This document shows positions 13,722 through 30,455 of a DNA stretch of 32,000 nt, in pieces. Position 1 is the first letter of the stretch. The number at the start of each line of letters is the position of its first letter. Below the pieces are notes generated by a model, which was given only the letters and a program-made list of their open reading frames with translations, did no database searches and was not told the DNA's origin. The translations under genes were made by a program, and so were the position numbers. Origin of the DNA: Devosia nanyangense. GTDB lineage: Bacteria; Pseudomonadota; Alphaproteobacteria; Rhizobiales; Devosiaceae. The stretch is from NCBI GenBank assembly GCA_016213505.1, contig JACRAF010000069.1, positions 136,316 through 168,315 on the forward strand, read 5' to 3'.

Positions 13722-13724
13722 CGG

Positions 13725-14702
13725 TTAGCCGTTCTGGCCGGCGCCGGCGTCGGGCACGATGGTGGCCGGATCGCCGTCGATGGCGAGCTCGATCAGCGGC
13801 ACGAGTTGGTCCAGCACGTAGTCGATGCTGAGCAGGCTCGAATAGGAGAACGCCCCCGACAGCAGGGCGTCGGCGAAGATCTCGCGGCCCTCACTGTAGG
13901 CCCTGAGGGTCGGCCGGAGCTTCATTGCCTTGATCTTGGCGGCATCGTCGAACCAGACGAGCACGTCGGCATCGAGCGGCGACAGATCCTCGGCCGAGAA
14001 GCTGGCATAGAAGTCGGTGGCGGCGCCGACCTTGTCGATGGCCTCCGGCGTTCCGAGGCCAAGCGAGGCAAGCAGCCGGGGCCGCATGTCGATCGAGCGG
14101 TAGGCGCCTGGAGCATCGTTCCAGAAAAAGCCGACTGCGGCGGTCTTGTCCTGCCAGCCGGGATGGGCGGCGCGGATTGCGGCAAAGCGATCTTCGATCG
14201 CCTTGATCCGTACTTCGGCCTCGGCGGATTTGCCGAGCGCCTTGCCGTCGGTGCGAACGTCGACCTGCCATGGCGTGCCGTAGTCGCCATATTCCGCTTC
14301 GGGAGCGACGGTCGGGGCGATCTGGCTCAGCAGCGCGTACTGCTCCTTGGTGATACCGGAGCCCACCGCGAGGATCAGGTCGGGCTGCAGCGCCGCGATC
14401 TGCTCGATGTTGAGGTCGCCCGTCAGCACGACCGGCTGGCTGTCGCCGAGCGCCGCCACGGCCCAGGGCCAGGCGGCATAGGGATAGTCGCCGTACCAGT
14501 AGCGCACGGCGACGGGCTTGATCCCGAGCGCCAGGATGTTGTCGGCGCCGGCATAGCCGAGCGAGACGACGCGCTCGGGCGCCTTCTCGATCGTGGTCGC
14601 GCCGTACATATGCGTCAGCGTGACGGGAAAATCCTGCGCCAGCGCGGGGGCGAGGCCGCCGGTGAAGAGCAGCGCGGCGGCGAACAAAGTCCTGAGGTTC
14701 AT
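13725..14702 (-). CDS. Iron-siderophore ABC transporter substrate-binding protein (paralogue 1)
   Basis: Signal peptide 'MNLRTLFAAALLFTGGLAPALA'. It has 'PERVVSLG' and 'WYGDYPYAAWPWA'. GGAG lies 7 nt before the ATG. Confidence 0.88.
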   Translation of the reverse strand: MNLRTLFAAALLFTGGLAPALAQDFPVTLTHMYGATTIEKAPERVVSLGYAGADNILALGIKPVAVRYWYGDYPYAAWPWAVAALGDSQPVVLTGDLNIEQIAALQPDLILAVGSGITKEQYALLSQIAPTVAPEAEYGDYGTPWQVDVRTDGKALGKSAEAEVRIKAIEDRFAAIRAAHPGWQDKTAAVGFFWNDAPGAYRSIDMRPRLLASLGLGTPEAIDKVGAATDFYASFSAEDLSPLDADVLVWFDDAAKIKAMKLRPTLRAYSEGREIFADALLSGAFSYSSLLSIDYVLDQLVPLIELAIDGDPATIVPDAGAGQNG

Positions 14703-14716
14703 CGAAGTCTCCGTTG

Positions 14717-15697
14717 TTACTGTGCGGGCGGCGGCACGGCCGTCGCGGGATCGCCGTCGACGGCGGCGGCCAGCATCGGCGGCAGGGTGTCGATCAGGTA
14801 GCCGAGCGCCGGCGGCGTCTGGAACGACAGCGCGCCCGAAAGCACGCCGCCGCCGAGCGAGATGTCGCGGCCCTCCCGGTGCAGCCGGGTGGTCCGGTAG
14901 ACCGAGAGCTCGGAAATGCCGGCCATACCCTCGGGCCAGACGAAGGCATCGAGCTCAATGAGGTTCAGGTTCTCGGGGCTGATGTCGAAATGGCCGCGCT
15001 CGGCCGCCTTCTCGTCGTAGAGCTTGGGGATCGTCAGCCCGAGGCTGGCGAGGAAGCGGTGCGAGGTGTCGGCCGAGTTGTAGGTGCGCACCAGCCCGTT
15101 GTCGAAATATCCGACCGCCGCCTGCTTGCCCTCGAGCCCCGGAAAGGCGGCGCGGGCGGCGGCGAAGCCGGCATCGATACCGGCGATGATTTCTTCCGCC
15201 CTGGCCGAGCGGCCGGTCGCCTGGCCGAGGAGCCGAAGCTCATCCTGCCAGGGGGCGCCCCATTGCGGAAACCCCCTGGGCGCGGTGATCGTCGGGGCGA
15301 TCGCCGAGAGCAGCCGATAGGTCGCCTCGTCGAGATCGCCATAGTAGGTCGCAACGATCAGGTCCGGATGCTGCGCCGCGACCCATTCGATGTTGATCTC
15401 GAAGCCCTTGAGCACCTCCGGGGTGGCGCCGGCCGCCTTGCGGGCCGCCTCCGCCCAGGGCCAGGTGGCATAGGGATAGTCGCCCCACCATTCGTGCACG
15501 CCGACCGGCGCAATGCCGAGGGCGTAGAGGAAATCCTGCTCGTGCATGCCGACCGAGACGACCCGCTCGGCCGCCGCCGCAATCGTCGTCTCGCCGAATT
15601 CGTGGGCGATGGTCACGGGGAAACCCTGCCCCAGCCCGACCGCCGGGAACGCCGTTCCAACCGAGACCGCAACGGTCGCCAGCGCTGCCAATTTCAT
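14717..15697 (-). CDS. Iron-siderophore ABC transporter substrate-binding protein (paralogue 2)
   Basis: ATG 15697 is preceded by GGAGACGAGACG. Signal peptide 'MKLAALATVAVSVGTAFPAVGLG'. It has 'AERVVSVG' and 'WWGDYPYATWPWA', and is collinear with paralogue 1. Confidence 0.88.
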   Translation of the reverse strand: MKLAALATVAVSVGTAFPAVGLGQGFPVTIAHEFGETTIAAAAERVVSVGMHEQDFLYALGIAPVGVHEWWGDYPYATWPWAEAARKAAGATPEVLKGFEINIEWVAAQHPDLIVATYYGDLDEATYRLLSAIAPTITAPRGFPQWGAPWQDELRLLGQATGRSARAEEIIAGIDAGFAAARAAFPGLEGKQAAVGYFDNGLVRTYNSADTSHRFLASLGLTIPKLYDEKAAERGHFDISPENLNLIELDAFVWPEGMAGISELSVYRTTRLHREGRDISLGGGVLSGALSFQTPPALGYLIDTLPPMLAAAVDGDPATAVPPPAQ

Positions 15698-15906
15698 CGT
15701 CTCGTCTCCATGTTTCGGCTTCGGCCGTAACAATCCGGACAAAACGAGTCAACTTTAAACGGCGCAGTTTGGAATGGCTCCAGACTAGGAGGGTTTCGGG
15801 ACCGGATTCGGTTCGCTCTCAGGTGGCGGTCTGGGACCTCGGAGTCCGCTTCCCTCAGAGGGAGGTGGCGCTGGAGCCGATCGCCGTGCGACTGTTTTGA
15901 GCGGTC

Positions 15907-17385
15907 CTAGATCGCCCGATCCGCGCAGATCGCGTAGTTGCCGGCCCATGGCCGCAGCTGCTCGAACACGGCGCTGGCGGCCAGCACGTCGGCGTCGGCA
16001 TAGCGCCGGCCGATGATCTGCATGCCCACCGGCAACCCGTCGGCGAGGCCGGCGGGAATCGAGGCCGCCGGATGGCCGGTGAAATTGACGGGGTAGGTCA
16101 GGCACCAGCCGATCAGCGGGTCGACGGCCTCGCCGTTGACCTCGCGCGGGCCGAGGGTGTTGCCGTCGGTGCCGTTCCTCACCGGCAGGCAGGCGAGCGT
16201 CGGAGTGACCAGCAGATCATAGGTGCCGAAGGCGCCCTGGATGGCGTCGTAGACGTGCGAGCGCATCTCCTGGTCGCGGCGGAGATCGGCGGCGGTCATC
16301 TTCTGCCCGAGCTCGATCCAGCGCAGATATTCGGGCGGGAAATCGCTGCGGTGATCCCTGAGCAGGTCGAGGCCGCCGGCCTTGACCGCATCGAAGTTAC
16401 CGAGGTTGAGCGGCATCATCAGGCGCGACCAGAGATCGGAAAGCTCGCGCTGGGAGTATGGGATGCCGAGCCGGATGTCTTCGACATGGGCGCCCGCCTC
16501 GGCAAACGCCTCGATGGCGCGCCGGACCACGGCCGCGACCTTGGGATCGACCGGGAACACGTCGAAATCCGGGCTGTAGCCGATCCGCATGCCCTTGATC
16601 GAGCGCTTGAGGGCGCCGAGATAGTCGACGCTCTCATCGAGGCTCAGCGGGTCGCGGGGGTCGTAGCCGCCGAGCGCGGTCATCGCCAGCGCCGCATCCT
16701 CGACGGTGCGGGTGATCGGCCCCTCGAACACGAACGGCAGATCGCCGGAAAACGCATTGGGGCGGACAACCACCGGCACCCGGCCGAACGAGGCCTTGTA
16801 GCCGTAAACGTTGCACCAGGCGGCGGGGATGCGGATGGAGCCGCCGGCGTCGGTGCCCTCGGCAAACGGCAGCAGCCCGTCGGCCACTGCCGCGGCACTG
16901 CCGCCGGAGGAACCGCCGGAATTGCGCGTGGTGTCGAACGGATTTCTGGTCGGGCCGAAGAGGTAGTTGTCGGTGGTGCCGCGGAGGCCCATCACCGGCG
17001 CGTTGGTCTTGCCGACGAGGATGGCGCCCGCTCTCTCGATGCGCTCGGCGAACACGCAGTGAAACTGGGTGGTGTTGTGCTCGAGGGCGCGGACGCCGCC
17101 GAAGGTCGAGGGCCAGCCCGGCTTGAAGTCGAAGAGGTCCTTGATCGCCGAGGGCACGCCGTGCAGGGGGCCGAGCGCATCGCCGCGCATCACCGCGTCC
17201 TCGGCGCTCCGCGCGGACTTGCGGGCGCCGTCGGCATCGAGATGGATGAGCGCGTTGAGACTGGGGTTGCGCGCCTCGATGCGCGCCAACGTCGCCGCCA
17301 TCACCTCGACCGGCGACATCTCGCGGGCGCGGATGCGGCGGGCGATCTCGGCGACGCTCACATAGGCGAAATCGTCCGGCCCCAT
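15907..17385 (-). CDS. Amidase-signature (AS) family amidase
   Basis: 492 aa. 'GVPSAIKDLF' (Lys), 'NSGGSSGGSAAAVA' and 'GTDAGGSIRIPAAWC' form the AS Ser-cisSer-Lys motif. GAGAGG lies 6 nt before the ATG. Confidence 0.92.
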   Translation of the reverse strand: MGPDDFAYVSVAEIARRIRAREMSPVEVMAATLARIEARNPSLNALIHLDADGARKSARSAEDAVMRGDALGPLHGVPSAIKDLFDFKPGWPSTFGGVRALEHNTTQFHCVFAERIERAGAILVGKTNAPVMGLRGTTDNYLFGPTRNPFDTTRNSGGSSGGSAAAVADGLLPFAEGTDAGGSIRIPAAWCNVYGYKASFGRVPVVVRPNAFSGDLPFVFEGPITRTVEDAALAMTALGGYDPRDPLSLDESVDYLGALKRSIKGMRIGYSPDFDVFPVDPKVAAVVRRAIEAFAEAGAHVEDIRLGIPYSQRELSDLWSRLMMPLNLGNFDAVKAGGLDLLRDHRSDFPPEYLRWIELGQKMTAADLRRDQEMRSHVYDAIQGAFGTYDLLVTPTLACLPVRNGTDGNTLGPREVNGEAVDPLIGWCLTYPVNFTGHPAASIPAGLADGLPVGMQIIGRRYADADVLAASAVFEQLRPWAGNYAICADRAI

Positions 17386-17402
17386 GGCGGCCTCTCGGTG
17401 CT

Positions 17403-17744
17403 TCAGTTGCCGAACCAGCCGTCCTTGAGATAGCGCATGTACTCGAAGATCATGCCGTGCTTGCGCACGAACACCACCTCGAGGAAATCGCCGACGATGA
17501 AGGGCGGAATGAGGATCTCGACGCCCTCGAGATGCGGCGCGAGGTCGGTGACGCGATAGGCGACGTGCGGATTATCGCGCACCGCCGCGGGCACCGTGCT
17601 GTCCTCGCGGTAGCGCAGGAACTCGATGTGCTCGGGGTGATGGCGCGGATTGGTGACCCAGATTTTGCTGGCCTCGACCCAATCCTCCTCGGGCTGCGGC
17701 TCAGTGGTGGTGATGCCGATATGATCGAAGACATAGTCCGCCAT
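17403..17744 (-). CDS. Small VOC (glyoxalase/dioxygenase-fold)-like protein, function unknown
   Basis: 113 aa from ATG 17744, with a TGATG overlap with the upstream stop. 'FDHIGITT', 'PHVAYRVTDL' and '...IFEYM' resemble the H/H/E ligand pattern of one VOC module. The assignment is by eye only. Confidence 0.5.
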   Translation of the reverse strand: MADYVFDHIGITTTEPQPEEDWVEASKIWVTNPRHHPEHIEFLRYREDSTVPAAVRDNPHVAYRVTDLAPHLEGVEILIPPFIVGDFLEVVFVRKHGMIFEYMRYLKDGWFGN

Positions 17745-18745
17745 CAGCCGATCCTCACCAGACTGCCGGTGCGGGCGGATTCCTCGGCGGCGAGCGTCGC
17801 CTCGAGCGCGGCGGTGGCGTCCTCGGGGATGCCGATCGCCGGCTGCTTGGCGGTGAGCGCACAATCGGCGAAATAGGCGAATTCGTCGCGCAGCGCGCCG
17901 CCGCGAACGCCGTCGAACATCGGCCAGTAGGTGGTATCGGGCGAGTGCAGCTTGCCGGCATCGACGATGCCGAGGTTGGGGAAGGTATCCTGGACGTGGA
18001 TGATGCCATCGGTGCCGATGATCGACATGCGCTCATCGATGTCGAACGGCGTTTTATCAGGCATGCACCAGACGGTCTCGAGCGTGGCGGTGGCGCCGCC
18101 CTTGAAGCGGAACATGGTCTGGCCGATGTCGGGGTGTTTGAGGCCGCGCACGTCGACGGTCTGGGCATAGGCCGAGACGATCGAGTCGCCGGTCAGCCAG
18201 AGCATGATGTCGGTGTCGTGGATGGCGTCGCCGACGATCGGGCCGATCTTGTTGAGGATGGTCGGGGTCCAGGCGGCGGGGATATTGCGGCGCGACGACA
18301 GCGCCACGATCCTGCCGATGCGGCCGGCGTCGATCGCCTGCTTGGCCATGCGGTAGCGCGGATTGAAGCGGACGATGTGGCCGATGAACAGGATGCCCTT
18401 GGCGCCCTTCGAGGCGGCCGTGATCGCCCTTGCGTCGGCCACCGTGGAGGCGATCGGCTTTTCGAGGAAGACGTGCTTGCCGGCCTTGAGCGCGGCGATC
18501 GCCGGTTCGGTGTGCTGGTCCCACATGGTGCAGATCGACACCGCGTCGATCTCGGGATCGGCGAGCATGTCGCGGTAGTCGCGGTAGAGTTTCTCGACGC
18601 CGAACTTTTCGCCCATGGCCTTGAGCCGGTCGGGGGTGCGCGTGCACAGCGCCTTGAGCTCGAGGTTCGGCACCCCGGCGATGGTCTCGGCGTGGATTTC
18701 GCCGAACCAGCCCAGGCCAATGATTCCGATACGCAGACGATCCAT
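17744..18745 (-). CDS. Gfo/Idh/MocA-family NAD(P)-dependent oxidoreductase
   Basis: 333 aa. Rossmann motif 'RIGIIGLGWFG' and the family 'VFLEKPIA' (EKP) motif. GAGGGGA lies before the ATG. Confidence 0.9.
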   Translation of the reverse strand: MDRLRIGIIGLGWFGEIHAETIAGVPNLELKALCTRTPDRLKAMGEKFGVEKLYRDYRDMLADPEIDAVSICTMWDQHTEPAIAALKAGKHVFLEKPIASTVADARAITAASKGAKGILFIGHIVRFNPRYRMAKQAIDAGRIGRIVALSSRRNIPAAWTPTILNKIGPIVGDAIHDTDIMLWLTGDSIVSAYAQTVDVRGLKHPDIGQTMFRFKGGATATLETVWCMPDKTPFDIDERMSIIGTDGIIHVQDTFPNLGIVDAGKLHSPDTTYWPMFDGVRGGALRDEFAYFADCALTAKQPAIGIPEDATAALEATLAAEESARTGSLVRIG

Positions 18746-18756
18746 GGTTGTTCCCC

Positions 18757-19536
18757 TCAGAAGTCTTCGAGCGTCAGCTCACGCGCCATCACGATGTTGC
18801 CGGCGCTCAACCCGCAATCGACCGGGATCACCGCGCCGGTTACGGCACTCGCCATATCGGAGGCGAGGAAGGCGATGACCCGCGCCACCTCGGCCGGCTC
18901 GACGATGCGGCCGAGCGGATACCAGCGCTCCAGCACCTCGAGGACTTTGGGGTCCTTGGCCGCCCGCTGGTCCCAGAGGGGCGTCCGCACCGTGCCGGGC
19001 AGCACGATATTGGCGCGGATGTTGTAGCGGCCATATTCGAGCGCGATGGCCTTGGTCATGGCGACCATGCCGGCCTTGCCGGCGCTGTAGGCGGGGTCGC
19101 CCAAGGCAAGCAGAGCGTTGACCGAGCCGACATTGACGATCGCGCCGCCGCGGCGGGCCACCATCTGCGGCAGCACCGCGTGGGCGCAATTGTAGGCGCC
19201 GTTGAGATTGGCGTTGACCTCGGCCTGCCAGCTCGCCGGATCGGTTCCGGCGAGGGTCGGGTGCTTCGAGCCGCCGGCATTGTTGATGAGGATGTGGACC
19301 TCCGCGAACCCGGCGAACGCCTCGGCGACCGATGCCGCCGAGCCGATCTCGGCCACCGCGGCGTGCGCGGCGTAGCCTTCCTCCCGGAGCTCCGTGGCGA
19401 AATCCATCACTGCCGGGCTGCGGTCGATCAGCGCCAGGGCGGCGCCGGCTTCGGCAAAGAAGCGGCACAGCGGACGGCCGATGCCGCCGGCGGCGCCGGT
19501 GATGGCGATGGTCTTGCCGTCGAACCTTTCGCTCAT
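18757..19536 (-). CDS. Short-chain dehydrogenase/reductase (SDR)
   Basis: 259 aa. 'TGAAGGIG', 'NNAG' and 'YSAGKAG' (YxxxK). ATGA overlap with the upstream gene. The ORF-track 519-aa version is an out-of-context extension. Confidence 0.92.
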   Translation of the reverse strand: MSERFDGKTIAITGAAGGIGRPLCRFFAEAGAALALIDRSPAVMDFATELREEGYAAHAAVAEIGSAASVAEAFAGFAEVHILINNAGGSKHPTLAGTDPASWQAEVNANLNGAYNCAHAVLPQMVARRGGAIVNVGSVNALLALGDPAYSAGKAGMVAMTKAIALEYGRYNIRANIVLPGTVRTPLWDQRAAKDPKVLEVLERWYPLGRIVEPAEVARVIAFLASDMASAVTGAVIPVDCGLSAGNIVMARELTLEDF

Positions 19537-20711
19537 GCGGCCCCCCTCAGCGCGTCGCCGATCCAGTTCAGGTTCGCCTGGCGCAAATGTCCCCAATTGT
19601 AGAACGCCACCTCGTCGACGCCGCCCGCCTGCAGCGCCTCGACGGCAGCGACGAACTCGCCCTTGCTGGCAAGATCGGGGTGCGAGGGCCTGAGGATGCC
19701 GCGCAGTCTGCCCGTCCCCAGCATCCGCCGGCGGATGTCGAACAGGTCGGCCTTCACCCGCATGGCGCTCGGCTCGTAAAAGCAGGCCTCGATGATGCCG
19801 GTGGTTTCGGCCAGTGCATGGAGGTCGCTGCCCTCGTACCAGGCGCCGCCGGTCGGCCGCGCCACCGAGGGGATGACGGCGACGTGCGCGTCCTTGCGGA
19901 CCGCGGCGCGGATTTCGCCGACCAAAGACGTGACCACGGAGCTGCGGAAATCGAGGTAGCGGCGGAGGTCGCCATCGGCGACGATGTCGGCGCGCCAGAA
20001 CGCCTCGGCCATGTCGGCGGGCAAATCGATGTCGCTGTCGAGATAGGCGGCGATATCGGCCGCGACCTGGGTCTTGAGCCGGCGCGCCTCGATCCCGGCC
20101 CGCTCCGCGGCGGCGACGCACTGGTCGCAGAAGCACAGCCCGAGCAGGTTCTCCAGCCAGATGTTCGACTTCATCAGCGCAAATTCGTGGTGGAAGCCGT
20201 GCGCATAGGGGGCGAAGCCCGGCGCTTCGACGGAGATGCCGGCGATCGGATAGCTCTCGGTGACATCGCGGGCGAGGCCGACAGCATAGGCGCGCGCCTC
20301 GGGGGCGGAGGGGCACAGATTGTAGAAATAGGGGTCGCCGAAGGCGTTGCGGACCACCGCGTCGGGGTGCGCCATGCCCAGCCGCGTATTGTGCAGCAGC
20401 ACCAGCCAGACATTGGTCGCCATGCCGCTGGTGTCGGTCAGCTCACGCAGGATGTCGCGGTCGCCCAGCAGGCTGTTGGCCACCGGTTTGATGGCGCCGT
20501 AGCGCGCCGGATCGGCGTTGAAATAGACGGTGCCGTCTTCGGGGAAATAGACCTTGCCGGTCTTGCCGTGAGGCCTGAGGAACTTGCCGGCGTGATAGCT
20601 GCCGGCGATGGTCACCGTGTCGAGCCCCAGCTTGCGGAACCCGTCCGCGGCGGCCGCGACGCCGGTCTCGGCGAGGTCCCAGGCGTAGGTGTAGATGGCC
20701 TTGTAGCTCAT
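19533..20711 (-). CDS. Conserved-looking hypothetical protein, 392 aa, cytoplasmic; possible glycoside-hydrolase-like TIM barrel with a Cys4 site
   Basis: Clean ORF with GAGGCAGG before the ATG and no signal peptide. Cys133 ('NLCPSAPE') plus 'C193-F-C195-D-Q-C198'. I recognise no family with confidence. Confidence 0.6.
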   Translation of the reverse strand: MSYKAIYTYAWDLAETGVAAAADGFRKLGLDTVTIAGSYHAGKFLRPHGKTGKVYFPEDGTVYFNADPARYGAIKPVANSLLGDRDILRELTDTSGMATNVWLVLLHNTRLGMAHPDAVVRNAFGDPYFYNLCPSAPEARAYAVGLARDVTESYPIAGISVEAPGFAPYAHGFHHEFALMKSNIWLENLLGLCFCDQCVAAAERAGIEARRLKTQVAADIAAYLDSDIDLPADMAEAFWRADIVADGDLRRYLDFRSSVVTSLVGEIRAAVRKDAHVAVIPSVARPTGGAWYEGSDLHALAETTGIIEACFYEPSAMRVKADLFDIRRRMLGTGRLRGILRPSHPDLASKGEFVAAVEALQAGGVDEVAFYNWGHLRQANLNWIGDALRGAA

Positions 20712-20723
20712 CGCGGGCCTGCC

Positions 20724-21935
20724 TCAGTGCTGATGGTCATGCGCATGCGCGCCGATGAACGGCGCCTCGAAAGGGCGCTGGGCGAGTTCCACCTCGGCGC
20801 CGCCGAGATAGCACGCAACCGGCTGCAGCAGCGTCGTGCCCTGCCGGCTCACGCCGACGACATCGGTGAACACATAGTCGGAGGCGACTTCGCGCAGCAC
20901 GGTGATATCGGCGGGCGCGCCGGCGCCGAGGTGGCCGAGGTCGGGCCGGCGCACGGCCAGCGCCGGACGGCTCGTCGACATGCCGATGATTTCGGCCAGC
21001 GGCAGGCCGCAATTGTGCAGCTTGCTCATGGTGTGGACCAGATCGAAGCCGGGCCCCTCGATCGAGACGACGTGGACGTCGCTCGAGATCAGGTCGGGCG
21101 GAAAGTTGTCGCCGATCGCGGCCTCGGCGCTGGCATAGCCGAAGGCGCCCATGCCGTGGGCGATGTCGAACAGCACGCCGCGTTCCCGCGCGGCGCGCAC
21201 CTCGGGCAGGATTTTGCCGTCGGCGCCGAGCGCCGAGTTCGGATCGGGGCGATAGCAGTGGGTCAGGATGTCGCCGGGGCGCAGCAGCGAGACCACCTCG
21301 GCATAGCTCGGCGGCGGGCCGCCGATATGGGCCATCAGCGGCAGGTCGGTCGCTTCGGCGGCCTCGAGCGCGAGGTGGAGCGCGCCCAGACCTAGATCGC
21401 CCGTCGCCAGCCCGCCGATGCGGACCTTCACGCCGATGATGCGATCGCGGTTGGCTTCGATCTTGGCCACGCAGCGGTCGACCGGCAGCATTTCTGCCAG
21501 CGTCGCCTCGCCGATGAACAGGCCTTTGTCGAAGCCGAAGATGCCGGGAAAGGAGATGTTGAGGAAGGCGAGGATGCGATAGGGCGAGTGCGCCATCACG
21601 TAGTCGCGTAGGCCGTCATAGTTGCCGGCGCCGGCGCTGCCGGCATCGATCAGCGTGGTGATCCCGCCGCGCCGCGCGACGAGGCCAGGGTCGACGCTGA
21701 GCGAGGTCGCCTTGTGGTAGACGTGGGTGTGGATGTCGATGAGGCCGGGCGCCACGATGCAGCCGCTCACGTCGCTGGTCCGGGTCGCGGCGGCGGCGAT
21801 ATGTTGGCCAACGGCGACGATCCTGCCGTCCTTGATCGCCACATCGAAGAGGCCATCGATGCCGTGGCGCTCGTCGATCACCCGTCCTCCCTTAAGGATG
21901 AGGTCGACGCTCGCGCCGGTCGCTTGCTCAGTCAT
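20724..21935 (-). CDS. Amidohydrolase-superfamily metallohydrolase (amidohydrolase/deacetylase, COG3964-like; often mis-annotated as dihydroorotase)
   Basis: 403 aa. N-terminal 'LILKGGRVID', 'AIKDGRIVAVG' and 'GLIDIHTHVY' (HxH metal motif). GGAG lies 7 nt before the ATG. Confidence 0.85.
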   Translation of the reverse strand: MTEQATGASVDLILKGGRVIDERHGIDGLFDVAIKDGRIVAVGQHIAAAATRTSDVSGCIVAPGLIDIHTHVYHKATSLSVDPGLVARRGGITTLIDAGSAGAGNYDGLRDYVMAHSPYRILAFLNISFPGIFGFDKGLFIGEATLAEMLPVDRCVAKIEANRDRIIGVKVRIGGLATGDLGLGALHLALEAAEATDLPLMAHIGGPPPSYAEVVSLLRPGDILTHCYRPDPNSALGADGKILPEVRAARERGVLFDIAHGMGAFGYASAEAAIGDNFPPDLISSDVHVVSIEGPGFDLVHTMSKLHNCGLPLAEIIGMSTSRPALAVRRPDLGHLGAGAPADITVLREVASDYVFTDVVGVSRQGTTLLQPVACYLGGAEVELAQRPFEAPFIGAHAHDHQH

Positions 21936-22001
21936 TCACGTCTCCGGTTGGACGCGAGGGGCGGGCCGTCTGCCCGCTGCCCCGCGACGGGCTGCGGCTC
22001 G

Positions 22002-23078
22002 TCAGGCGAGCACGACCACCCGCTCTTCGTTGATACTCTGCTCGGCGGCGAGCACGATGCGCAGGCTGTTCACCGCCGCGTCCATCTGCGTGCCGAGGTC
22101 GAGGTCCTCGTTGATGGCCTTGAGGAAGAAGGCCTGCTCGCGATCGCAGAGCTCCTGGTGACCGGGCTCGTCGGTCATGGTGAAGATCTCGTCCTTGCGA
22201 AGGAAGTTCCTGTCGGGCCCGACTTCGGCGTGGTGGTACTGGATCGCATCGGTCTTGGTGTGCTGGTCGATATTGGACGAATCCGACACGCCGTCCTTGT
22301 GCGCCTTGGGGTTGGGGACGATGGAGACGGCGCCCTTGGGGCCCACCACGTCCTTCACGAAATAGGCCACTTCGCTCATCATCGGACCCCAGCCGGCTTC
22401 GTACCAGCCGACCGAACCATCATCGAAGGTGACGTGGAGGTGCCCGTAGTTCGGCTTGTCCGCCTCGGCCCAGAGCTTGGCGCCGATGCCGTGCACGCGC
22501 ACCGGCTTGGCGCCGGTCAGCTGGCACATCACATCGACATAGTGCACGCCGCAATCGACGATCGGGATCAGCGAGTCGATGAGGTTCTTGTGCCAGTCAT
22601 AGGTCGGCCCGCCGCTCTGCTGGTTGAGGTTGAGCCGCATCACCAAAGGCTTGCCCAGCGTCTGGCCCAGCTCGATGAACTTCATCCACGAGGGGTGGAC
22701 GCGCAGGATATAGCCGAGCACCAGCTTGCGCTTTTTGGCGCGAGCCACGGCGACGACCTTTTCGGCGTCCTCGATGGTGGTGGCGATGGGCTTTTCCATG
22801 AATACATGGGCGCCGGCGTTCATCGCCTTGATGGCGTATTCGGCATGGCTGTTGGGCCAGGAATTGATCGAGACCGCATCGGGCTTGGTGACCCGCAGCG
22901 CCTCGTCGAAATCCTCGAACAGCGGATAGCCCTTCAGCTCCGCTGGAATCGTCTTCTCCTTGATCGACCGGCTCATCAGCCCGACGATCTCAAAGCCCGG
23001 GTTGCGATGGTAGGCGCTGGCGTGCGAGGCGCCCATATTGCCCAGTCCCACGACCAATACTTTCACCTTGGCGGCCAT
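22002..23078 (-). CDS. Gfo/Idh/MocA-family NAD(P)-dependent oxidoreductase
   Basis: 358 aa. 'KVLVVGLGNMG' and 'VFMEKPIA'. GGGGAGAG lies before the ATG. Confidence 0.9.
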   Translation of the reverse strand: MAAKVKVLVVGLGNMGASHASAYHRNPGFEIVGLMSRSIKEKTIPAELKGYPLFEDFDEALRVTKPDAVSINSWPNSHAEYAIKAMNAGAHVFMEKPIATTIEDAEKVVAVARAKKRKLVLGYILRVHPSWMKFIELGQTLGKPLVMRLNLNQQSGGPTYDWHKNLIDSLIPIVDCGVHYVDVMCQLTGAKPVRVHGIGAKLWAEADKPNYGHLHVTFDDGSVGWYEAGWGPMMSEVAYFVKDVVGPKGAVSIVPNPKAHKDGVSDSSNIDQHTKTDAIQYHHAEVGPDRNFLRKDEIFTMTDEPGHQELCDREQAFFLKAINEDLDLGTQMDAAVNSLRIVLAAEQSINEERVVVLA

Positions 23079-23108
23079 CCGGCTCTCCCCATCAGCTTGT
23101 TCTCGTGA

Positions 23109-23138
23109 GATGCGGGCGGCGGCGAGGCCACCCGCATC
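23109..23138 (-). other. Stem-loop (8-bp perfect stem GATGCGGG/CCCGCATC, 14-nt loop) just downstream of the binding-protein gene
   Basis: Inverted repeat read directly. No U-tract. Confidence 0.3.
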
Positions 23139-23156
23139 GTTCGTCAGGGTTCGCGA

Positions 23157-24323
23157 TCAGCCTTTGACGGCCTGGTCGAACAGATGCGCCTTCACGTCGG
23201 CGATATTGACCTTGGCGAAGGCCTCGGAGACCGGATAGGCCTCCGCGTCCGCCTTGATCTTGTCGTGATCGAAGTCATTGGCCGCGGCGATGCAGGCGTT
23301 GGAGCAGACGTCTTCGGCCTTGATCGGCTTGCTGATCTGCTTGAGTGCGAGCAACTGATCGAAGAAGGTCTGCCAGGCGGCCATGTTGTGGTCGCCCCAG
23401 CCGGCGCGCTTGGACATGTCGCCGCGCACGACGTTGATCTGCTGCAGGATCGAGGTCGCGCCGAGTTCCGGCCCGATGTTGGTGGCGAGCGTCGGGAACT
23501 GCTCGAACACCGCTTCCACCGCGGCCATCGGGTTGTGATACGAGAACTCCAACCCCATCGACCAGGCACGCAGGTACTTGTCGAGGAAGGCCTTGCGATC
23601 GGGATCGTCGAGATCGGCGGCACGCACCACATAGGTGTTGGCAAACAGCGGCGAGCGCTGCACGCCGAGCCAGTACTCGAAATCGAGGCCGCTGCCGATC
23701 CACTCGGCACGCAGACCCTCCCAGGCGAGGGCGGCGTCACCCTGGCCGGAGGCGAGCGCGGTGCCCCAGGTGGGCCAGCCGGCTTCGACGTATTTCACCT
23801 TCGAGATATCGACACCGTGCACGGCGAGCATCGGATCGACGATCGACTGCCACGCGGCGGAGCCGAGCAGGATGGTCTTGCCCTCGAGCTGCTTGAGATC
23901 GTTGGTGCCCTCGCCCTTGCGGAACGCAAGGCTGAAGGTGTCGAGCGCGCCCCAGTGGAACGCCGATTTGAGCTTCATGCCGTTTTCGAGCGCGAACGAG
24001 AAAATGCCCGGCGACGGAAAGCCCATATCGGCCTGGCCGACATCGACGAACTTCACTGTGGCGGTGCCGTCCGACGGGCCCGGCTGCATCTCGGTCTGAA
24101 CGCCGAGATCGTCGAAATAGCCCAGCTTCTTGCCCATCCAGTAGCCGAAATCGTCGAGCACCTCGAGCGTGCCACGCGGCGAGATCCACGTGAACTTCGA
24201 GTACGGTTCGGCCAAGGCGCGGCCGACCGAGCCGAACACGGTGGCGGTTACGACGCCCGCGGCGCTGACCTGGAGGAAGGTCCGGCGGTTGAGGCCGGGC
24301 AATCTGGACGTGAATTCAGTCAT
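23157..24323 (-). CDS. NitT/TauT-family ABC transporter substrate-binding protein (NMT1/THI5-like) with twin-arginine signal
   Basis: ATG 24323 is preceded by GGGGAGACTGAT. The N-terminus 'MTEFTSRLPGLNRRTFLQVSAAGVVTATVFGSVGRALA' carries an RRxFL Tat motif. Confidence 0.8.
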   Translation of the reverse strand: MTEFTSRLPGLNRRTFLQVSAAGVVTATVFGSVGRALAEPYSKFTWISPRGTLEVLDDFGYWMGKKLGYFDDLGVQTEMQPGPSDGTATVKFVDVGQADMGFPSPGIFSFALENGMKLKSAFHWGALDTFSLAFRKGEGTNDLKQLEGKTILLGSAAWQSIVDPMLAVHGVDISKVKYVEAGWPTWGTALASGQGDAALAWEGLRAEWIGSGLDFEYWLGVQRSPLFANTYVVRAADLDDPDRKAFLDKYLRAWSMGLEFSYHNPMAAVEAVFEQFPTLATNIGPELGATSILQQINVVRGDMSKRAGWGDHNMAAWQTFFDQLLALKQISKPIKAEDVCSNACIAAANDFDHDKIKADAEAYPVSEAFAKVNIADVKAHLFDQAVKG

Positions 24324-24359
24324 ATCAGTCTCCCCTGTTGAGTTCTTCTTGTTCGCGTG

Positions 24360-24385
24360 CACCCGCTCCGTCCCCGGCGCGGGTG
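24360..24385 (-). other. Stem-loop (7-bp stem CACCCGC/GCGGGTG, 12-nt loop) between the permease and binding-protein genes
   Basis: Inverted repeat read directly. Confidence 0.25.
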
Positions 24386-24391
24386 GTCTAG

Positions 24392-25234
24392 CTATGCTTC
24401 CCAGCTCGCCCACTTCTTTCCGATCAGGAAAAAGAGGATGTAGATGAGAATGCCGAGCATCGAGAGGATCACCACGACGGCAAAAAACTGCGGCATCTGG
24501 ATCATCGACGAATAGGATGTCAGCCGGTTGCCGAGGCCAAAGCCGCCTCCGACCATCTCGGCGCCGACTGCCGTGAGCAGCCCGAAGATCGCCCCGACCA
24601 TGAGGCCGACGAGGATCATCGGCAGCGCCATCGGGGCGCGAATCTTCCAGAAGATCTGCAGCGTCGTCGCGCCATAGGAGCGCGCCAGTGCGATCTTGCC
24701 GCGATCGACGCGGCGAAAGCCGGTGGCCGCGTTGATCATCACCATGGGGCCGGCGGCAAGCGCCACCGCGATGATGCGCGGGGTATAGCCGAAGCCGAAA
24801 CGCAGGATCAGCAGCGGCACGAGCGCCAGCATCGGCGTCGTCACCAGCAGCAGGATGTAGGGCGTGATGATCTTCTCGGCGAACGGGAACTGGGTGATGA
24901 CCGCCGCGAGGACCAGCCCGATGAGGGCGCCGATGCCAAAGCCCGAGAACAGCTCGACCAGCGTGTGCCCGAGATGCGGCAGGATATGCGGGAACTCGGT
25001 GACCAGCGCCTGGGCGATCAGGCTGGGCGCCGGCATGATGTATTGCGGGACGTTGAACCAGCGCAGCGCAAACTCGGTCGCACCGATCACCACCACGGCG
25101 ACGCCGATGATCGCCGCCACTTCGCGCGCCGATTTGATGCCGGGTCCGGCCGCCAGCGCCGACATGTTGGCGACGCCGACGTCGCCACCGGGCGCGGCTT
25201 TGGTAAATTCGGGGATGGCGTCGTTGCTGTCCAT
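24392..25234 (-). CDS. NitT/TauT-family ABC transporter permease
   Basis: 280 aa from ATG 25234, multi-TM. 'ARSYGATTLQIFWKIRAPMALP' is an EAA-type loop. The start is less certain because the SD is weak. Confidence 0.85.
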   Translation of the reverse strand: MDSNDAIPEFTKAAPGGDVGVANMSALAAGPGIKSAREVAAIIGVAVVVIGATEFALRWFNVPQYIMPAPSLIAQALVTEFPHILPHLGHTLVELFSGFGIGALIGLVLAAVITQFPFAEKIITPYILLLVTTPMLALVPLLILRFGFGYTPRIIAVALAAGPMVMINAATGFRRVDRGKIALARSYGATTLQIFWKIRAPMALPMILVGLMVGAIFGLLTAVGAEMVGGGFGLGNRLTSYSSMIQMPQFFAVVVILSMLGILIYILFFLIGKKWASWEA

Positions 25235-25247
25235 TTGAAGCGGAATC

Positions 25248-26069
25248 CTAGTGTGCCGCCTGGGGGAGCTTGCGCGTCGCCGTCGAGGCTTTGCTCTTTT
25301 GCTCGCCGACGATGTCCAGCTTGATGGCGTTGGTGAGGTCGAAGACCTCCTTGGTGGCCATGATCTCGAAGGAGCGCGGTCGCGCGAAGGGCACCGCATA
25401 TTCCTTGGCGACGCGGCCCGGCCGGGTGCTCATGACGATAACCCGGTCGGAGAGAAAGATCGCTTCGTCGATCGAATGGGTGATGAGGACGATGGTGGTC
25501 CTGGTGTCGAGGTAGATCTCCTCGACGAGGTGGTTCATTTCCTCGCGGGTGAAGGCGTCGAGGGCGCCGAACGGTTCGTCCATCAGCAGCACCGAGGGCT
25601 TGAACGAGAGGGCCCGGACGAGAGCGGCGCGCTGCTGCATGCCGCCCGAGAGTTCGCGCGGGAAGCGCTCGCCGAAGCCCTCGAGCCCGACCCGATGGGT
25701 GAGCCGCGCGATCCAGTCGCGGTCGGGCTTTTGATGCTTGATCTCGAACGGGAAGTGGATGTTGGCGTCGAGGTTGCGCCAGGGCAGCAGATTGGCGTCC
25801 TGAAACACCATGCCGATTTCCGAGCTCGGGCCGGTGATCGGCTTGCCGTCGATCAGCACCTCGCCGGCGCTGAGGCTGTGCAGGCCCGACATCGACCAGA
25901 GCAGCGTGGTCTTGCCGCAGCCCGACGGTCCGACGATCGAAACGATCTGGCCGGCCTCGATATCGAGGTTGCAATTGTCGATGGCGACGAGGTCGCCGGA
26001 GGCCGTCGGATAGACCTTCGTCGCGCCCCGCACCCGCAGCTTTGGGTTCGATTGTTCCCGAAGGCTCAT
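25248..26069 (-). CDS. NitT/TauT-family ABC transporter ATP-binding protein
   Basis: Walker A 'GPSGCGKTT', signature 'LSGGMQQR', Walker B 'VLLMDEPF'. I prefer ATG 26069 over the upstream GTG 26120. Confidence 0.9.
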   Translation of the reverse strand: MSLREQSNPKLRVRGATKVYPTASGDLVAIDNCNLDIEAGQIVSIVGPSGCGKTTLLWSMSGLHSLSAGEVLIDGKPITGPSSEIGMVFQDANLLPWRNLDANIHFPFEIKHQKPDRDWIARLTHRVGLEGFGERFPRELSGGMQQRAALVRALSFKPSVLLMDEPFGALDAFTREEMNHLVEEIYLDTRTTIVLITHSIDEAIFLSDRVIVMSTRPGRVAKEYAVPFARPRSFEIMATKEVFDLTNAIKLDIVGEQKSKASTATRKLPQAAH

Positions 26070-26247
26070 CGTCGTCGCGGTCCCCGTCCTGCCCGCCTGG
26101 CGGGACGCTCTCACAAGCACCCGTCAGTTGATGGTCGAGTTTGTGATTATCCTACACGATGAGTCAATGGGGCACCGAAAAAACTTACATATGGCCCAAA
26201 AGGCCCGGAAATCGGGCGGTTCTAGGTAGGAGGGTTGTGTAAGTTTC

Positions 26248-26264
26248 CAACATGGATCATGTTG
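26248..26264. promoter_or_regulatory. Perfect palindrome CAACATG-GAT-CATGTTG in the divergent promoter region; candidate operator (RpiR-type regulator?)
   Basis: 7-bp arms with a 3-bp spacer, read directly. It lies in the lowest-GC stretch of the window, 46 nt upstream of the regulator's TTG start. Confidence 0.4.
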
Positions 26265-26310: not shown

Positions 26311-27237
26311 TTGGGTGATGCAAGCCAGCGCAGGGCCGGGCAATTGCGCTACGACAAGCCCATCCCCGACATCCTCTCGCAGATCAAGGATTCCTATGCC
26401 GATCTGCGTCCGGCGGAACGCCGGGTCGCCGACGTGGTGCTCGCCGACGTCGCCTTCTCGGTCGATGCATCGAACGCCGTGATCGCCCGCCGCGCCGATG
26501 TCAGCGAGCCGACGGTCACGCGCTTCTGCCGCGCCATCGGCTGCGACGGGGTGCGCGACTTCAAGCTCAAGCTGGCGCAAAGCGTCGTCGTCGGCCGGCT
26601 CTATCTCAGCCCGGAGCAGCCGCCGGCCCCGAGCGACAACGCGTCACCGATGTGGAACGTCGTTTTCGGCGAGGCCCGCAGCGCGCTCAATGCCGTCGAG
26701 CGGCAGGTCGACCCGCGCGACATCGTCCGCGCCGCCGAGCTGATCGCCACCGCCCACCAGGTGGCGGTGTTCGGTCTGGGGGGCAGCTCGACGGCGCTGG
26801 CGCAGGAGACGCAATATCGCCTGTTCCGCTATGGCGTCGTCGTCTCGGCCCACTCCGACCCCTACATCATGCGGATGACGGCATCGACGCTGAAGCCGCA
26901 CGATCTGGTGATCGCCATCTCCGCCACCGGGCGCACGCGCGAAGTGGTCGAGGCGGTGGAGCTGGCCAAGCACTATCGCGCCAGCACCATCTGCATCACC
27001 GCGCCCGACACCGACCTCGCCAAGATCTGCGACGTGGCGCTGACCGTCGATATTCCGGAATTCCCCGACACCATGAAGCCGACGGCGTCGCGCTACGCCT
27101 TCCTCGCGATCATCGATCTGGTCTCGGCCGCCGCCGGCTACCGGCTCGATGCGTCGGCGCTCGAGACGCTGCGCCGGATCAAATACAACGTCGTTACGCA
27201 CAGGAAGGGCAGGGAGCTCGAGCCGCTCGGCGACTGA
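26311..27237 (+). CDS. RpiR/MurR-family transcriptional regulator (N-terminal HTH_6 plus C-terminal SIS domain)
   Basis: 'LRPAERRVADVVL', 'VSEPTVTRFCRAIGCDGVRDFKLKLA' and the SIS motifs 'VAVFGLGGSS' and 'VIAISATGRTREVV'. The start is TTG, with no in-frame ATG upstream of the HTH. Confidence 0.88.
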   Translation: MGDASQRRAGQLRYDKPIPDILSQIKDSYADLRPAERRVADVVLADVAFSVDASNAVIARRADVSEPTVTRFCRAIGCDGVRDFKLKLAQSVVVGRLYLSPEQPPAPSDNASPMWNVVFGEARSALNAVERQVDPRDIVRAAELIATAHQVAVFGLGGSSTALAQETQYRLFRYGVVVSAHSDPYIMRMTASTLKPHDLVIAISATGRTREVVEAVELAKHYRASTICITAPDTDLAKICDVALTVDIPEFPDTMKPTASRYAFLAIIDLVSAAAGYRLDASALETLRRIKYNVVTHRKGRELEPLGD

Positions 27238-27240: not shown

Positions 27241-27266
27241 AGGCGGGTCGCGCCGCGGCCCCGCCT
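27241..27266. terminator. 7-bp GC stem (AGGCGGG/CCCGCCT, 12-nt loop) between convergent genes; candidate bidirectional terminator
   Basis: Read directly. It fills nearly all of the 27-nt convergent gap and overlaps the permease stop codon. No U-tract. Confidence 0.35.
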
Positions 27267-28149
27267 ACTTGACCGCGCCGGCCACGACGCCGCGGGTCAG
27301 CGTGCGCTGGAAGATCAAAAAGAAGATCACCGTGGGCAGGATGCCGAGGAGACCCGCTGCGGCCTGCAGGGTCGGGTCGGACATGTTCTGTCCGCGCGTC
27401 AGGCCCATGGCGACGGCGACCGTCTGGTTGTTGTTGGAGACCAGCATCACCACCGGGATCAGAAACTCGTTCCAGGTCCAGATGAAGAAGAATGTCCCCA
27501 GCACCATCAGCGTCGGGGTCATGATCGGGATCACCACCTTGGTGAGGGTCTGCCAGCGCGTCGCCCCGTCAATCTCGGCGGCCTCCAGAATCTCGCGCGG
27601 GAATGTGCTCATCACCGATGACAGCAGGTAAGTCCCGAAAGCACTGTGGAGCACCGCGGTGACGATGATCACCGACAGTTGGGTGTCATAGAGCCCCACC
27701 GTCTTGGCCATCCAGTAGATCGGATAGATGATCGACTCCTGCGGCACCATGGTGCCCAGCAGCAGGATGGCGAGGATGACGGTCGAGCCCCTTACGCGGC
27801 CGATGCCGAGCGCATATGCATTGAACAGGCTGATGCCCACCGCGAGGACGGACACCGTCACGCTGATCAGCGTGCTGTTGAAGAGCTTTCGCGCATAGTC
27901 GGCGTCTTTCCAGAACTTCGCGATCGAGTCGAACTGCAGGTAAGTCGGGATCGACAGCGGACCGCCGCGCACATAGTCGGTGCCCGGCTTGAAGGCGTTG
28001 AGCAGCGCTATGAAGAACGGGAACAGGGTGAACACCAGCAGGGCCAGCAGCACGGCAAGCACGAGCCATCGCATCGGCGAGCGTGCCTGGTGAGCGTGCG
28101 CGACGGCGGCCTTGGCCGGGTTGCTTGCGAATACGGTTGCCTCGGCCAT
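27265..28149 (-). CDS. Carbohydrate (CUT1-type) ABC transporter permease, MalG-like
   Basis: 294 aa from ATG 28149. EAA loop 'ILEAAEIDGATRWQTLTKVVIP'. The ORF-track 468-aa version is an extension into the upstream gene. Confidence 0.9.
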   Translation of the reverse strand: MAEATVFASNPAKAAVAHAHQARSPMRWLVLAVLLALLVFTLFPFFIALLNAFKPGTDYVRGGPLSIPTYLQFDSIAKFWKDADYARKLFNSTLISVTVSVLAVGISLFNAYALGIGRVRGSTVILAILLLGTMVPQESIIYPIYWMAKTVGLYDTQLSVIIVTAVLHSAFGTYLLSSVMSTFPREILEAAEIDGATRWQTLTKVVIPIMTPTLMVLGTFFFIWTWNEFLIPVVMLVSNNNQTVAVAMGLTRGQNMSDPTLQAAAGLLGILPTVIFFLIFQRTLTRGVVAGAVK

Positions 28150-28151
28150 TG

Positions 28152-29057: not shown

Positions 29058-29074
29058 CTCACCCTCCCCGGATT

Positions 29075-29101
29075 GGGCCGCCGCCTGGTGGGCGGCAGCC
29101 C
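29075..29101 (-). promoter_or_regulatory. 11-bp stem / 5-nt loop RNA hairpin immediately downstream of the binding-protein gene
   Basis: GGGCCGCCGCC-tggtg-GGCGGCAGCCC. The single DNA mismatch (C/A on the plus strand) becomes G.U on the sense (minus) strand. Confidence 0.4.
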
Positions 29102-29118
29102 GTCAGTTGCGGCCCGCC

Positions 29119-30384: not shown

Positions 30385-30404
30385 GTCGGTGTTCCTCCTC
30401 ATCA

Positions 30405-30455
30405 GCGGACCATTGTCCTCCCATTGTAGCCGGCGATCGGTCCGCGATTGGTCCG
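30405..30455 (-). promoter_or_regulatory. Cluster of GGACC/GGTCC-containing repeats plus a TACAAT -10-like hexamer upstream of the binding-protein gene; candidate internal promoter/operator
   Basis: Tandem 11-mers GCGATCGGTCC/GCGATTGGTCC at 30433-30454. CCATTGT occurs twice, 11 bp apart (30410-16 and 30421-27). GGAC-catt-GTCC is at 30407-18. TACAAT is on the minus strand at 30423-28. Confidence 0.3.

Follow-up and report, generated by a model that had tools for sequence, protein, structure and literature searches.

A conserved nine-gene cluster with two uncharacterised protein families in Devosia nanyangense and its putative role in the catabolism of N-acylated sugar derivatives

A 32,000-nucleotide stretch of DNA from Devosia nanyangense (assembly GCA_016213505.1, contig JACRAF010000069.1, positions 136,316 to 168,315 of the forward strand; hereafter the window; G+C about 68%) carries ten compactly arranged minus-strand genes, numbered g1 to g10, next to a divergent gene for an RpiR-family regulator. 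We found that nine of these genes and the regulator form a conserved unit, while g10 is a local add-on that is physically part of the operon in this genome. Our favoured but still tentative reading is that the operon serves the catabolism of an imported N-acylated, polyhydroxylated amino-sugar, amino-sugar-acid or aminocyclitol derivative, which would be handled as an N-acyl-D-amino-acid-like sugar acid. Being fed by an ATP-binding cassette (ABC) importer and controlled by a repressor, the operon is ordinary in kind. Its enzymes, however, include two uncharacterised, widespread protein families, those of g6 and g9, and its chemistry seems to have only a partial parallel in the ong cluster of Pseudoalteromonas prydzensis ACAM 620. 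The latter is the closest characterised system and degrades 2-acetamido-2-deoxy-D-gluconate (GlcNAc1A), a product of oxidised chitin (PMC9537276; PMC12017989).

The conserved gene cluster and its control region

A first-pass annotation had described the ten genes as one tightly coupled unit with an RpiR/SIS regulator upstream. Their order, families and spacers were all reproduced from the open reading frame list, the start codons and the Pfam and NCBIfam assignments (Table 1). The first three genes encode the ATPase (g1), the permease (g2) and the NMT1-like substrate-binding protein (g3) of an ABC importer. They are followed by a Gfo/Idh/MocA (GFO) oxidoreductase (g4), an amidohydrolase (g5), a protein of 392 residues (g6), a short-chain dehydrogenase/reductase (SDR, g7), a second GFO enzyme (g8), a small protein predicted to adopt the vicinal oxygen chelate (VOC) fold (g9) and an amidase-signature enzyme (g10). 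The twin-arginine translocation (Tat) motif of g3 and the HTH_6 and SIS domains of the regulator likewise agreed with the annotation. Successive genes are separated by 13, 68, 78, 66, 12, -4, 11, -1 and 17 nucleotides; g6 and g7 thus overlap by 4 nucleotides, and by 1 nucleotide the start codon of g9 lies over the stop of g8. The amidase gene, 17 nucleotides past g9, has the ribosome-binding site GAGAGG.

Relatives of g6 were located in species-representative genomes by a pattern and tblastn, using a 13-sequence alignment, and were found at at least 508 places. The best 80 of these were taken with 10-kb flanks and searched by tblastn with all eleven window proteins; 48 loci were fully flanked, and the counts below refer to these. 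In 18 of them (type 1; Devosia, Hoeflea, Mesorhizobium, Aquibaculum and Rhizobiaceae metagenome-assembled genomes) the order of the window, RpiR / g1 g2 g3 g4 g5 g6 g7 g8 g9, is retained with 64-93% identity. All 18 contain the three ABC genes, g4, g5 and, in the same divergent position, an RpiR homologue (70-84% identity), and g7 is present in 17. Since this order is kept in other genera, the nine genes are associated beyond chance juxtaposition. The amidase occurs in none of the type-1 loci and, elsewhere positioned, in 8 of the 48, which marks g10 as the local add-on.

A second arrangement, RpiR / g1 g2 g3 g9 g6 g7 g8 g4, usually without g5, was found in 19 loci (type 2; Taklimakanibacter, Aestuariivirga, Rhizobium setariae and others). 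The remaining 11 loci are reduced: g8 and g9 are missing, and g6 is accompanied by g5, by the SDR or by both. Genes g8 and g9 are each present in 17 of the 18 type-1 loci, all 19 type-2 loci and none of the other 11. Over the 48 loci, each ABC gene was detected 39 times, g4 40 times, g5 29 times, g7 42 times, and g8, g9 and RpiR 36 times each. The smallest recurring unit consists of deacylase, g6 and SDR, and it stands alone in two loci (L087 and L090). In L090 (3121-6520), g6 is 91% identical to that of the window; g5, g6 and the SDR gene are followed by a 69-residue open reading frame without family, no transporter gene is present, and the locus gives the impression of a cluster copy that has been reduced or is in decay. 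In Planctomicrobium, genes for an M20 peptidase and a D-aminoacylase-like enzyme flank the arrangement RpiR / g9 g6 SDR GFO. The pair of g6 and SDR recurs in distant lineages of bacteria and archaea. Genes of the CutC family (PF03932) were observed inside two divergent clusters (L047:12723-13661 and L060:14185-14868).

The neighbourhood comparison that the first-pass annotation had called for thus bears out co-conservation of g1 to g9 and RpiR across genera, but not of g10. The ten genes are compact and co-oriented, as proposed, and show no excess of terminator-like sites; the conserved unit, however, is the smaller one of nine genes plus RpiR. The pair of different amide or ester hydrolases listed in that annotation does not define the cluster, because g10 is missing from every syntenic locus. 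What is conserved is one deacylase slot.

Between positions 15600 and 26400 we counted five terminator-like sites, compared to 5.0 expected in shuffled sequence. The 164-nucleotide gap past g10 contained no intrinsic terminator and no unusually stable fold (z = 0.30); since no terminator was detected there, transcription may read through into the FecCD/Peripla_BP_2 genes that follow. These genes, two FecCD permeases and two tandem Peripla_BP_2 substrate-binding proteins on the same strand, were not found after g9 in the relatives examined (L004, L005, L018, L026 and L037).

Alignment of 12 intergenic regions between RpiR and g1 (alignment A4) revealed two conserved blocks with the common 14-nucleotide motif GTnGGAnAnTTACA. 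A promoter-like sequence, CTTGAC-N16/17-(T/C)ACAAA, is also conserved and is overlapped by the second block; its TTGAC columns, like those of the box, are invariant. In the window the two boxes read GTTGGAAACTTACA and GTAGGATAATCACA. A search of all 32 kb for the pattern GTNGGAWANTYACA gave just two occurrences, versus 0.10 expected, and both lie in this intergenic region. A third half-site, ACTTACA, lies between both boxes in opposite orientation. From these alignments we infer a promoter and operator role for the region. Since the two conserved boxes overlie the putative promoter, the arrangement suggests a single RpiR-controlled promoter upstream of g1 and one transcript.

Two protein families without a family model

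The g6 protein corresponds to HY834_21165 of the Devosia nanyangense metagenome-assembled genome (100% identity). It matched no Pfam model at E up to 1, no NCBIfam model and no glycoside hydrolase (GH) or GHL model. Its family is nevertheless large: 2698 of 8000 scored candidates matched at E ≤ 1e-3, and a 50%-identity library contained 1672 matching clusters, 405 of them at E ≤ 1e-30, nearly all of about 390 residues. Members occur in groups as far apart as Alphaproteobacteria, Planctomycetes and haloarchaea. An alignment of 47 varied family sequences contained columns invariant for P, E, F or Y as well as two motifs, HG[FY]HHE and LCP...CFCxxC. In the window protein these read HGFHHE (171-176; His171/174/175-Glu176), LCP and CFCDQC, with cysteines at 133, 193, 195 and 198. 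Glu162 is invariant throughout the family, and Glu162 and Glu308 are both invariant in the closer set. The four-cysteine cluster may resemble that of GH42.

An AlphaFold2 model of g6 built from the 47-member alignment is a (β/α)8 barrel (predicted local distance difference test, pLDDT, 96; predicted template-modelling score, pTM, 0.94). Foldseek against the PDB returned the C-terminal GH153 domain of PgaB as the best match (E 1.5e-11 to 1e-9, template-modelling (TM) score 0.57-0.63), followed by GH20, GH156, GH66, GH5 and others. Sequence searches of the PDB gave no useful match for either g6 or g9; the g6 family profile matched Cwp19 (E 0.08) and 4s1a weakly. Of the 47 relatives, 21 weakly matched Pfam GHL10 (best 1.1e-07) and 8 matched GHL6; the window protein matched neither. 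While the barrel is common to g6, PgaB GH153 and the GHL10 protein Cwp19, identity is only 11-13%, and g6 is a cytoplasmic, single-domain protein with its own HG[FY]HHE and C..CxCxxC motifs. The glycosidase-like barrel suspected from the translation alone therefore holds at the level of the predicted fold, but membership in a GH family is not established.

The family of g9 comprises proteins of 111-117 residues in Alphaproteobacteria and Planctomicrobium. The AlphaFold2 model (pLDDT 92.7) matched VOC enzymes with TM scores of 0.61-0.68, among them BH1468, glyoxalase I and methylmalonyl-CoA epimerase (2qh0, 3hdp, 6bu2), and the VOC-like character noted earlier was thus recovered at fold level. 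Paired βαβββ modules place the ligands on the β1, β4, β5 and β8 positions of the canonical fold, and His8, Glu41, His60 and Glu101 are invariant (alignment A3). Such a four-ligand H/E/H/E pattern is of the glyoxalase-I type, unlike the 2-His-1-Glu pattern of dioxygenases, and the model therefore suggests that g9 is a proton-transfer isomerase or epimerase. Glyoxalase I and methylmalonyl-CoA epimerase share fold and metal tetrad with g9; the latter, however, is shorter, has no Pfam match and always stands beside a GFO dehydrogenase. This constant company suggests a sugar ketone as substrate instead of a thioester or hemithioacetal. The companion dehydrogenase g8 is the most conserved protein of the cluster (80-90% identity across loci).

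It is possible, though we hold it more doubtful than the catabolic reading as a whole, that the g6 family is a new GH-like enzyme family which, together with the SDR and an interchangeable deacylase, makes up the entry module of an undescribed non-phosphorylative pathway for N-acylated amino sugars or amino-sugar acids, with g8 and g9 as a second new enzyme couple.

Table 1. Features of the Devosia nanyangense window (positions within the 32,000-nucleotide stretch)
Feature	Position	Strand	Evidence and remarks
g1, ABC ATPase, TauB/SsuB-like	25248-26069	-	ABC_tran 1.4e-31; Walker A and LSGG intact
g2, ABC permease, SsuC/SaoP-like	24392-25234	-	BPD_transp_1 5.7e-24
g3, predicted Tat-exported NMT1/THI5-like substrate-binding protein	23157-24323	-	NMT1 4.6e-20; twin-arginine RRTFL at residue 13
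g4, Gfo/Idh/MocA oxidoreductase	22002-23078	-	GFO_IDH_MocA 1e-28; GxGxxG and EKP intact
g5, COG3964/PRK09237 binuclear-metal amidohydrolase, predicted deacylase	20724-21935	-	NF006689, 384.5 bits (cutoff 371)
g6, 392-residue GH-like (β/α)8 barrel	19533-20711	-	fold prediction; no Pfam or NCBIfam match
g7, classical SDR	18757-19536	-	adh_short_C2 5e-51; TGxxxGIG, NNAG and YxxxK intact
g8, Gfo/Idh/MocA dehydrogenase	17744-18745	-	GFO_IDH_MocA 1.3e-29; GxGxxG and EKP intact
g9, 113-residue VOC-fold predicted metalloprotein	17403-17744	-	fold prediction; no Pfam or NCBIfam match
g10, amidase-signature enzyme	15907-17385	-	Amidase (PF01425) 3.5e-100, 336.6 bits
RpiR-family regulator, divergent	26311-27237	+	Pfam HTH_6 1.2e-16, SIS 1.2e-16; TTG start uncertain
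Operator-like box 1	26238-26251	-	conserved block in alignment A4
Operator-like box 2	26142-26155	-	conservation in alignment A4; overlaps spacer and -10 of putative promoter
Putative promoter -35, TTGACT	26162-26167		
Third half-site, ACTTACA	26183-26189	+	
nag-like set	1356-5009	+	ROK kinase, GntR/UTRA regulator, SIS_2 protein, NagA-like Amidohydro_1
FGGY sugar kinase and CUT2-type sugar ABC genes	4997-10062	kinase -, ABC genes divergent	Peripla_BP_4, double ABC_tran, BPD_transp_2
FecCD and Peripla_BP_2 genes	11596-15742	-	164 nucleotides past g10
Separate operon convergent on RpiR	27265-32000	-	two permeases, SBP_bac_1, AP_endonuc_2 barrel, GFO (cut by window end)
AP_endonuc_2 (xylose-isomerase-like) barrel of that operon	30479-31441		

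An exchangeable deacylase and the proposed route

The amidohydrolase g5 belongs with the COG3964 enzymes Atu3266 (2ogj), EF_0837 (2ics) and BmulJ_04915 by both score and metal motif (HxH is HTH, residues 69-71; COG3964/PRK09237), and its closest structure is 2ogj (1e-61, full-length alignment). COG3964 enzymes reportedly hydrolyse acetyl esters of alpha-hydroxy acids, of the acetyl-(R)-mandelate type. A true dihydroorotase can be ruled out, since 2ogj is excluded from the dihydroorotases (PMC12524618).

A D-aminoacylase-like gene adjoins RpiR (L001, L036, L044, L069, L071, L073, L078 and L081) in Planctomicrobium and in seven loci of type 2, none of which has g5. The encoded protein scores 521 bits to the D-aminoacylase AfDam (1m7j) and 454 bits to PpOngB (9kb1). 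This D-aminoacylase/N-acyl-D-glutamate deacylase type is absent from the window, where tblastn with the D-aminoacylase-like query gave just a 74-residue, 28% match within g5. Judged by sequence, the D-aminoacylase-like enzyme is a non-orthologous replacement of g5 at the predicted deacylase step. Elsewhere the position is taken by M20, S9/S15, creatininase-family or AstE-like hydrolases; there is one conserved deacylase slot, filled by unrelated families in different lineages.

OngB is itself a D-aminoacylase-like enzyme (subtype V) that deacetylates GlcNAc1A, whereupon OngC, a fold-type-III enzyme with pyridoxal 5'-phosphate (PLP) as cofactor, deaminates the resulting 2-amino-2-deoxy-D-gluconate (GlcN1A) to 2-keto-3-deoxygluconate (KDG). 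OngD is a RidA protein, OngA a GH20 enzyme, OngIT a sodium:solute symporter (SSS) family transporter and KdgK a kinase, and OngR (MurR/RpiR family) represses ongCRBD (PMC9537276). The positions that govern deacylase specificity are A193/A256/S292/Q298/G348 in PpOngB and F191/M254/T290/L298/M346 in AfDam (PMC12017989). All eight cluster-linked sequences have F/A/T/(T,S,G)/Q instead. Their cavity is more polar than that of AfDam and matches neither AfDam, BbDam nor OngB. These enzymes may form a third specificity group in the D-aminoacylase family. Since the linked cavity lacks the OngB signature, the substrate of the pathway is probably not GlcNAc1A itself.

Genes that accompany the relatives point to a deamination. 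Directly after g9, at the place of the window's amidase, at least nine type-1 loci encode a fold-type-III PLP enzyme (Ala_racemase_N and D-ser_dehydrat), with RidA as the next gene. Among known structures, those nearest to the PLP enzyme are D-threonine aldolase (4v15) and D-threo-3-hydroxyaspartate dehydratase (3wqc). A 593-residue protein resembling flavin-containing (FMO) or Baeyer-Villiger monooxygenases (BVMO) is encoded past RpiR and on its strand in 19 of the 48 loci, in both arrangements (for example L004:1550-3331, minus strand).

Distant g6 subfamilies have comparable surroundings. Rhizobium johnstonii pRL10 and Aminobacter pSR1 have paralogue operons that encode, in this order, a fold-type-III PLP enzyme, RidA, an AstE/aspartoacylase-like deacylase and g6, beside a sugar ABC importer and an amidohydrolase. 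Haloferax volcanii pHV4 and Haloarcula marismortui pHMA411 carry genes for IclR, a creatininase-family protein, a sugar ABC importer, g6, an enolase-superfamily protein, SDR and RidA, to which the H. volcanii set adds eda. On a Burkholderia pseudomallei plasmid g6-SDR lies beside a GH88/KduD/KduI locus, and metagenomic contigs have Amidohydro_1-g6-SDR, S9/S15 with g6-SDR, or GFO-g6-M20. Because these subfamilies show the same neighbours, the constant partners of g6 are the SDR and some amide hydrolase, with a deaminating enzyme and RidA as frequent company.

From gene content, folds, conservation and the operator-like boxes we infer the following chemistry, every step of which is conditional. 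The Tat-exported g3 and the TauBC-like g2 and g1 would import the compound. In the cytoplasm the g5-g6-g7 unit would act on it: g6 would open or cleave the sugar-ring part at a glycosidic or lactone bond, g7 would oxidise or reduce the product, and g5 would remove the N- or O-acyl group. A keto intermediate could then be made by g8 and isomerised or epimerised by its partner g9, with g4 as a further redox step. In sister genomes the 2-amino acid would be deaminated to a 2-keto-3-deoxy acid by the fold-type-III PLP enzyme and RidA, as in ong. In the window this putative end module is missing from the cluster and g10 stands appended in its place, which suggests that the substrate, or the step that releases nitrogen, varies in a lineage-specific way. 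RpiR would bind the two 14-nucleotide boxes over the promoter and be released on binding a sugar or acid of the pathway.

Several observations weigh against this route. Genes for the PLP deaminase, RidA and the D-aminoacylase-like and FMO-like proteins were not found in the 32-kb window, so that deamination is linked to it by association only, and the F/A/T/T/Q residues of the D-aminoacylase-like neighbours correspond neither to OngB nor to known D-aminoacylases. The fold similarity of g6, which has no GH or GHL match, is moderate (TM about 0.6), its His-rich HGxHHE is not a classical glycosidase signature, and g6 may be a non-hydrolase. NMT1/TauABC-type importers are atypical for sugar transport. 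Furthermore, the 80 loci, whose g6 proteins are at least 68% identical, belong to a single clade, and the counts are therefore not independent.

The top NCBIfam scores of g1 were to taurine and aliphatic-sulfonate ATPase models, but a firm assignment to sulfonate or taurine import was rejected, all equivalog scores being far under their cutoffs. The sole PDB sequence relative of g3 was 4nmy (2.5e-10). No NCBIfam equivalog model reached its cutoff with g4. The add-on g10 bears the amidase signature, with GGSSGG at residue 157 and the catalytic Lys K82.

Beyond the cluster, the window contains an FGGY sugar kinase gene divergent from CUT2-type sugar ABC genes. On the other side, a separate operon converges on RpiR; its gene set is typical of 3-keto-sugar or inositol-type pathways, and the RpiR operator motif was not found near it.

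Comparison with characterised pathways

Literature searches revealed no published, experimentally defined locus that matches the cluster. To this extent the first-pass statement that no known pathway fits stands, but ong provides a precedent: counterparts of its OngR, OngB, OngC and OngD are encoded among the relatives. In general terms, the neighbourhood evidence agrees with the suggestion that an amide-linked sugar, cyclitol or opine-like compound is broken down oxidatively.

The same counterparts would be expected if the cluster were simply an alphaproteobacterial version of ong, importing GlcNAc1A or chitobionic acid. Here g6 would take the part of OngA and cleave GlcNAc-GlcNAc1A, g5 that of OngB, and the GFO and SDR enzymes would oxidise C1 of the released N-acetylglucosamine (GlcNAc), which would bring both halves into one route. 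The best structural matches of g6, PgaB/GH153 and GH20, are indeed hexosaminidase-type barrels. The window also contains, about 11 kb from the operon, a nag-like set that represents a conventional GlcNAc utilisation cluster. We nevertheless consider this version unlikely: the linked D-aminoacylase-like enzymes have F/A/T/T/Q where OngB has A/A/S/Q/G, with Ser292 and Gln298, both important for GlcNAc1A, replaced; KdgK, an SSS transporter and GH20 are missing; the window has no counterparts of OngC and OngD; and no role would remain for one oxidoreductase out of the three or for the VOC protein.

About equally improbable is a pathway for a derivative of inositol or of an aminocyclitol, for example an N-acyl-inosamine or a rhizopine-like compound. 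IolG-like GFO enzymes would make an inosose, the relatives' BVMO would open the ring to a lactone for g6 to hydrolyse, and the amino-aldonate would be deacylated and deaminated. The best NCBIfam match of g8 is IolG, the structures nearest to it carry annotations as a dehydrogenase (3ezy) and as inositol dehydrogenases, and the FMO/BVMO-like gene past RpiR could supply the ring-opening activity. The activity of COG3964 enzymes on acetyl esters of alpha-hydroxy acids, as reported, also counts in favour of this pathway. Yet this ring-opening chemistry is entirely speculative, and the window has no FMO-like gene. With 175.7 bits, far under the cutoff of 355 (g4: 86.2 bits), orthology of g8 to IolG was ruled out, and no iolE, iolD, iolB or iolC family is represented in the operon.

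The two GFO enzymes, a barrel and a small metal enzyme also resemble the logic of 3-keto-glycoside pathways, in which a GFO would oxidise C3 of a glycoside or N-glycoside, g6 and g9 would eliminate or hydrate to free the aglycone, the SDR or second GFO would reduce the sugar, and the amide hydrolases would act on the aglycone. GFO matches included disaccharide and glycoside 3-dehydrogenases and DgpA, and the Planctomicrobium cluster has a 3keto-disac_hyd gene in its vicinity. This explanation is less probable still: the known eliminases are xylose-isomerase-like barrels, of which the operon encodes none, whereas g6 is GH-like; every 3-dehydrogenase model score was far under its cutoff; and the deacylase-g6-SDR units of L087 and L090 have no intact GFO gene.

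Least probable is a mosaic in which a deacylase and an amidase that scavenge N-acyl-D-amino acids or peptides sit beside unrelated sugar oxidoreductases, or else a system of the ThiXYZ/YlmB kind, in which an NMT1-type importer and a deformylase would salvage a vitamin or pyrimidine. The amidase is clearly a late addition, hydrolase partners vary widely among lineages, and thiamine-pyrimidine salvage offers a precedent for an NMT1 substrate-binding protein with an amide hydrolase. Against this, the order of nine genes is kept across genera (70-90% identity), with overlaps of -4 and -1 nucleotides (translational coupling) and one conserved operator region; g6 pairs with the SDR in bacteria and archaea; and no TenA or M20 family and no thiamine gene was found among the scanned window genes.

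Catabolism of an N-acylated, D-amino-acid-like sugar derivative thus remains the reading we prefer. Whichever substrate applies, the cluster is a well-delimited and widely distributed target for function discovery, with two core proteins (g6 and g9) that have neither a family model nor a characterised relative. The neighbourhood evidence narrows the substrates to a short, testable list of N-acylated, hydroxylated D-amino-acid-like sugar acids or glycosides. If the link to oxidised amino sugars is true, Alphaproteobacteria and haloarchaea would use carbohydrate products thought to be mainly a gammaproteobacterial resource, and g6 would found a new CAZy-type family. If it is false, the operon still illustrates cleanly how enzymes of the deacylase step undergo non-orthologous displacement. 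The entry-module reading, if true, would mean that sugar catabolism in the ong-like, D-amino-acid style reaches far outside the Gammaproteobacteria; the ong route, described as 'akin to D-amino acid catabolism', is reported from Gammaproteobacteria and one betaproteobacterium (PMC9537276).

Compared gene by gene with ong, none of the ten window genes is homologous to OngA, OngB, OngC, OngD, KdgK or OngIT. The importer is an NMT1-type ABC system instead of an SSS transporter, the deacylase is of the COG3964 instead of the D-aminoacylase-like type, and the alphaproteobacterial cluster encodes three oxidoreductases and a VOC enzyme beyond the ong set. Both, however, encode a MurR/RpiR-family regulator (HTH_6 and SIS here, a family-level relative of OngR) and a glycosidase-type barrel (a predicted fold in the case of g6), and both would start non-phosphorylatively with a metal-dependent deacylase. 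The sister clusters additionally share the fold-type-III PLP deaminase and RidA with ong. By this analogy, the two systems likely follow a common logic, in which an N-acyl D-amino-acid-like hydroxy acid is first deacylated and then deaminated.

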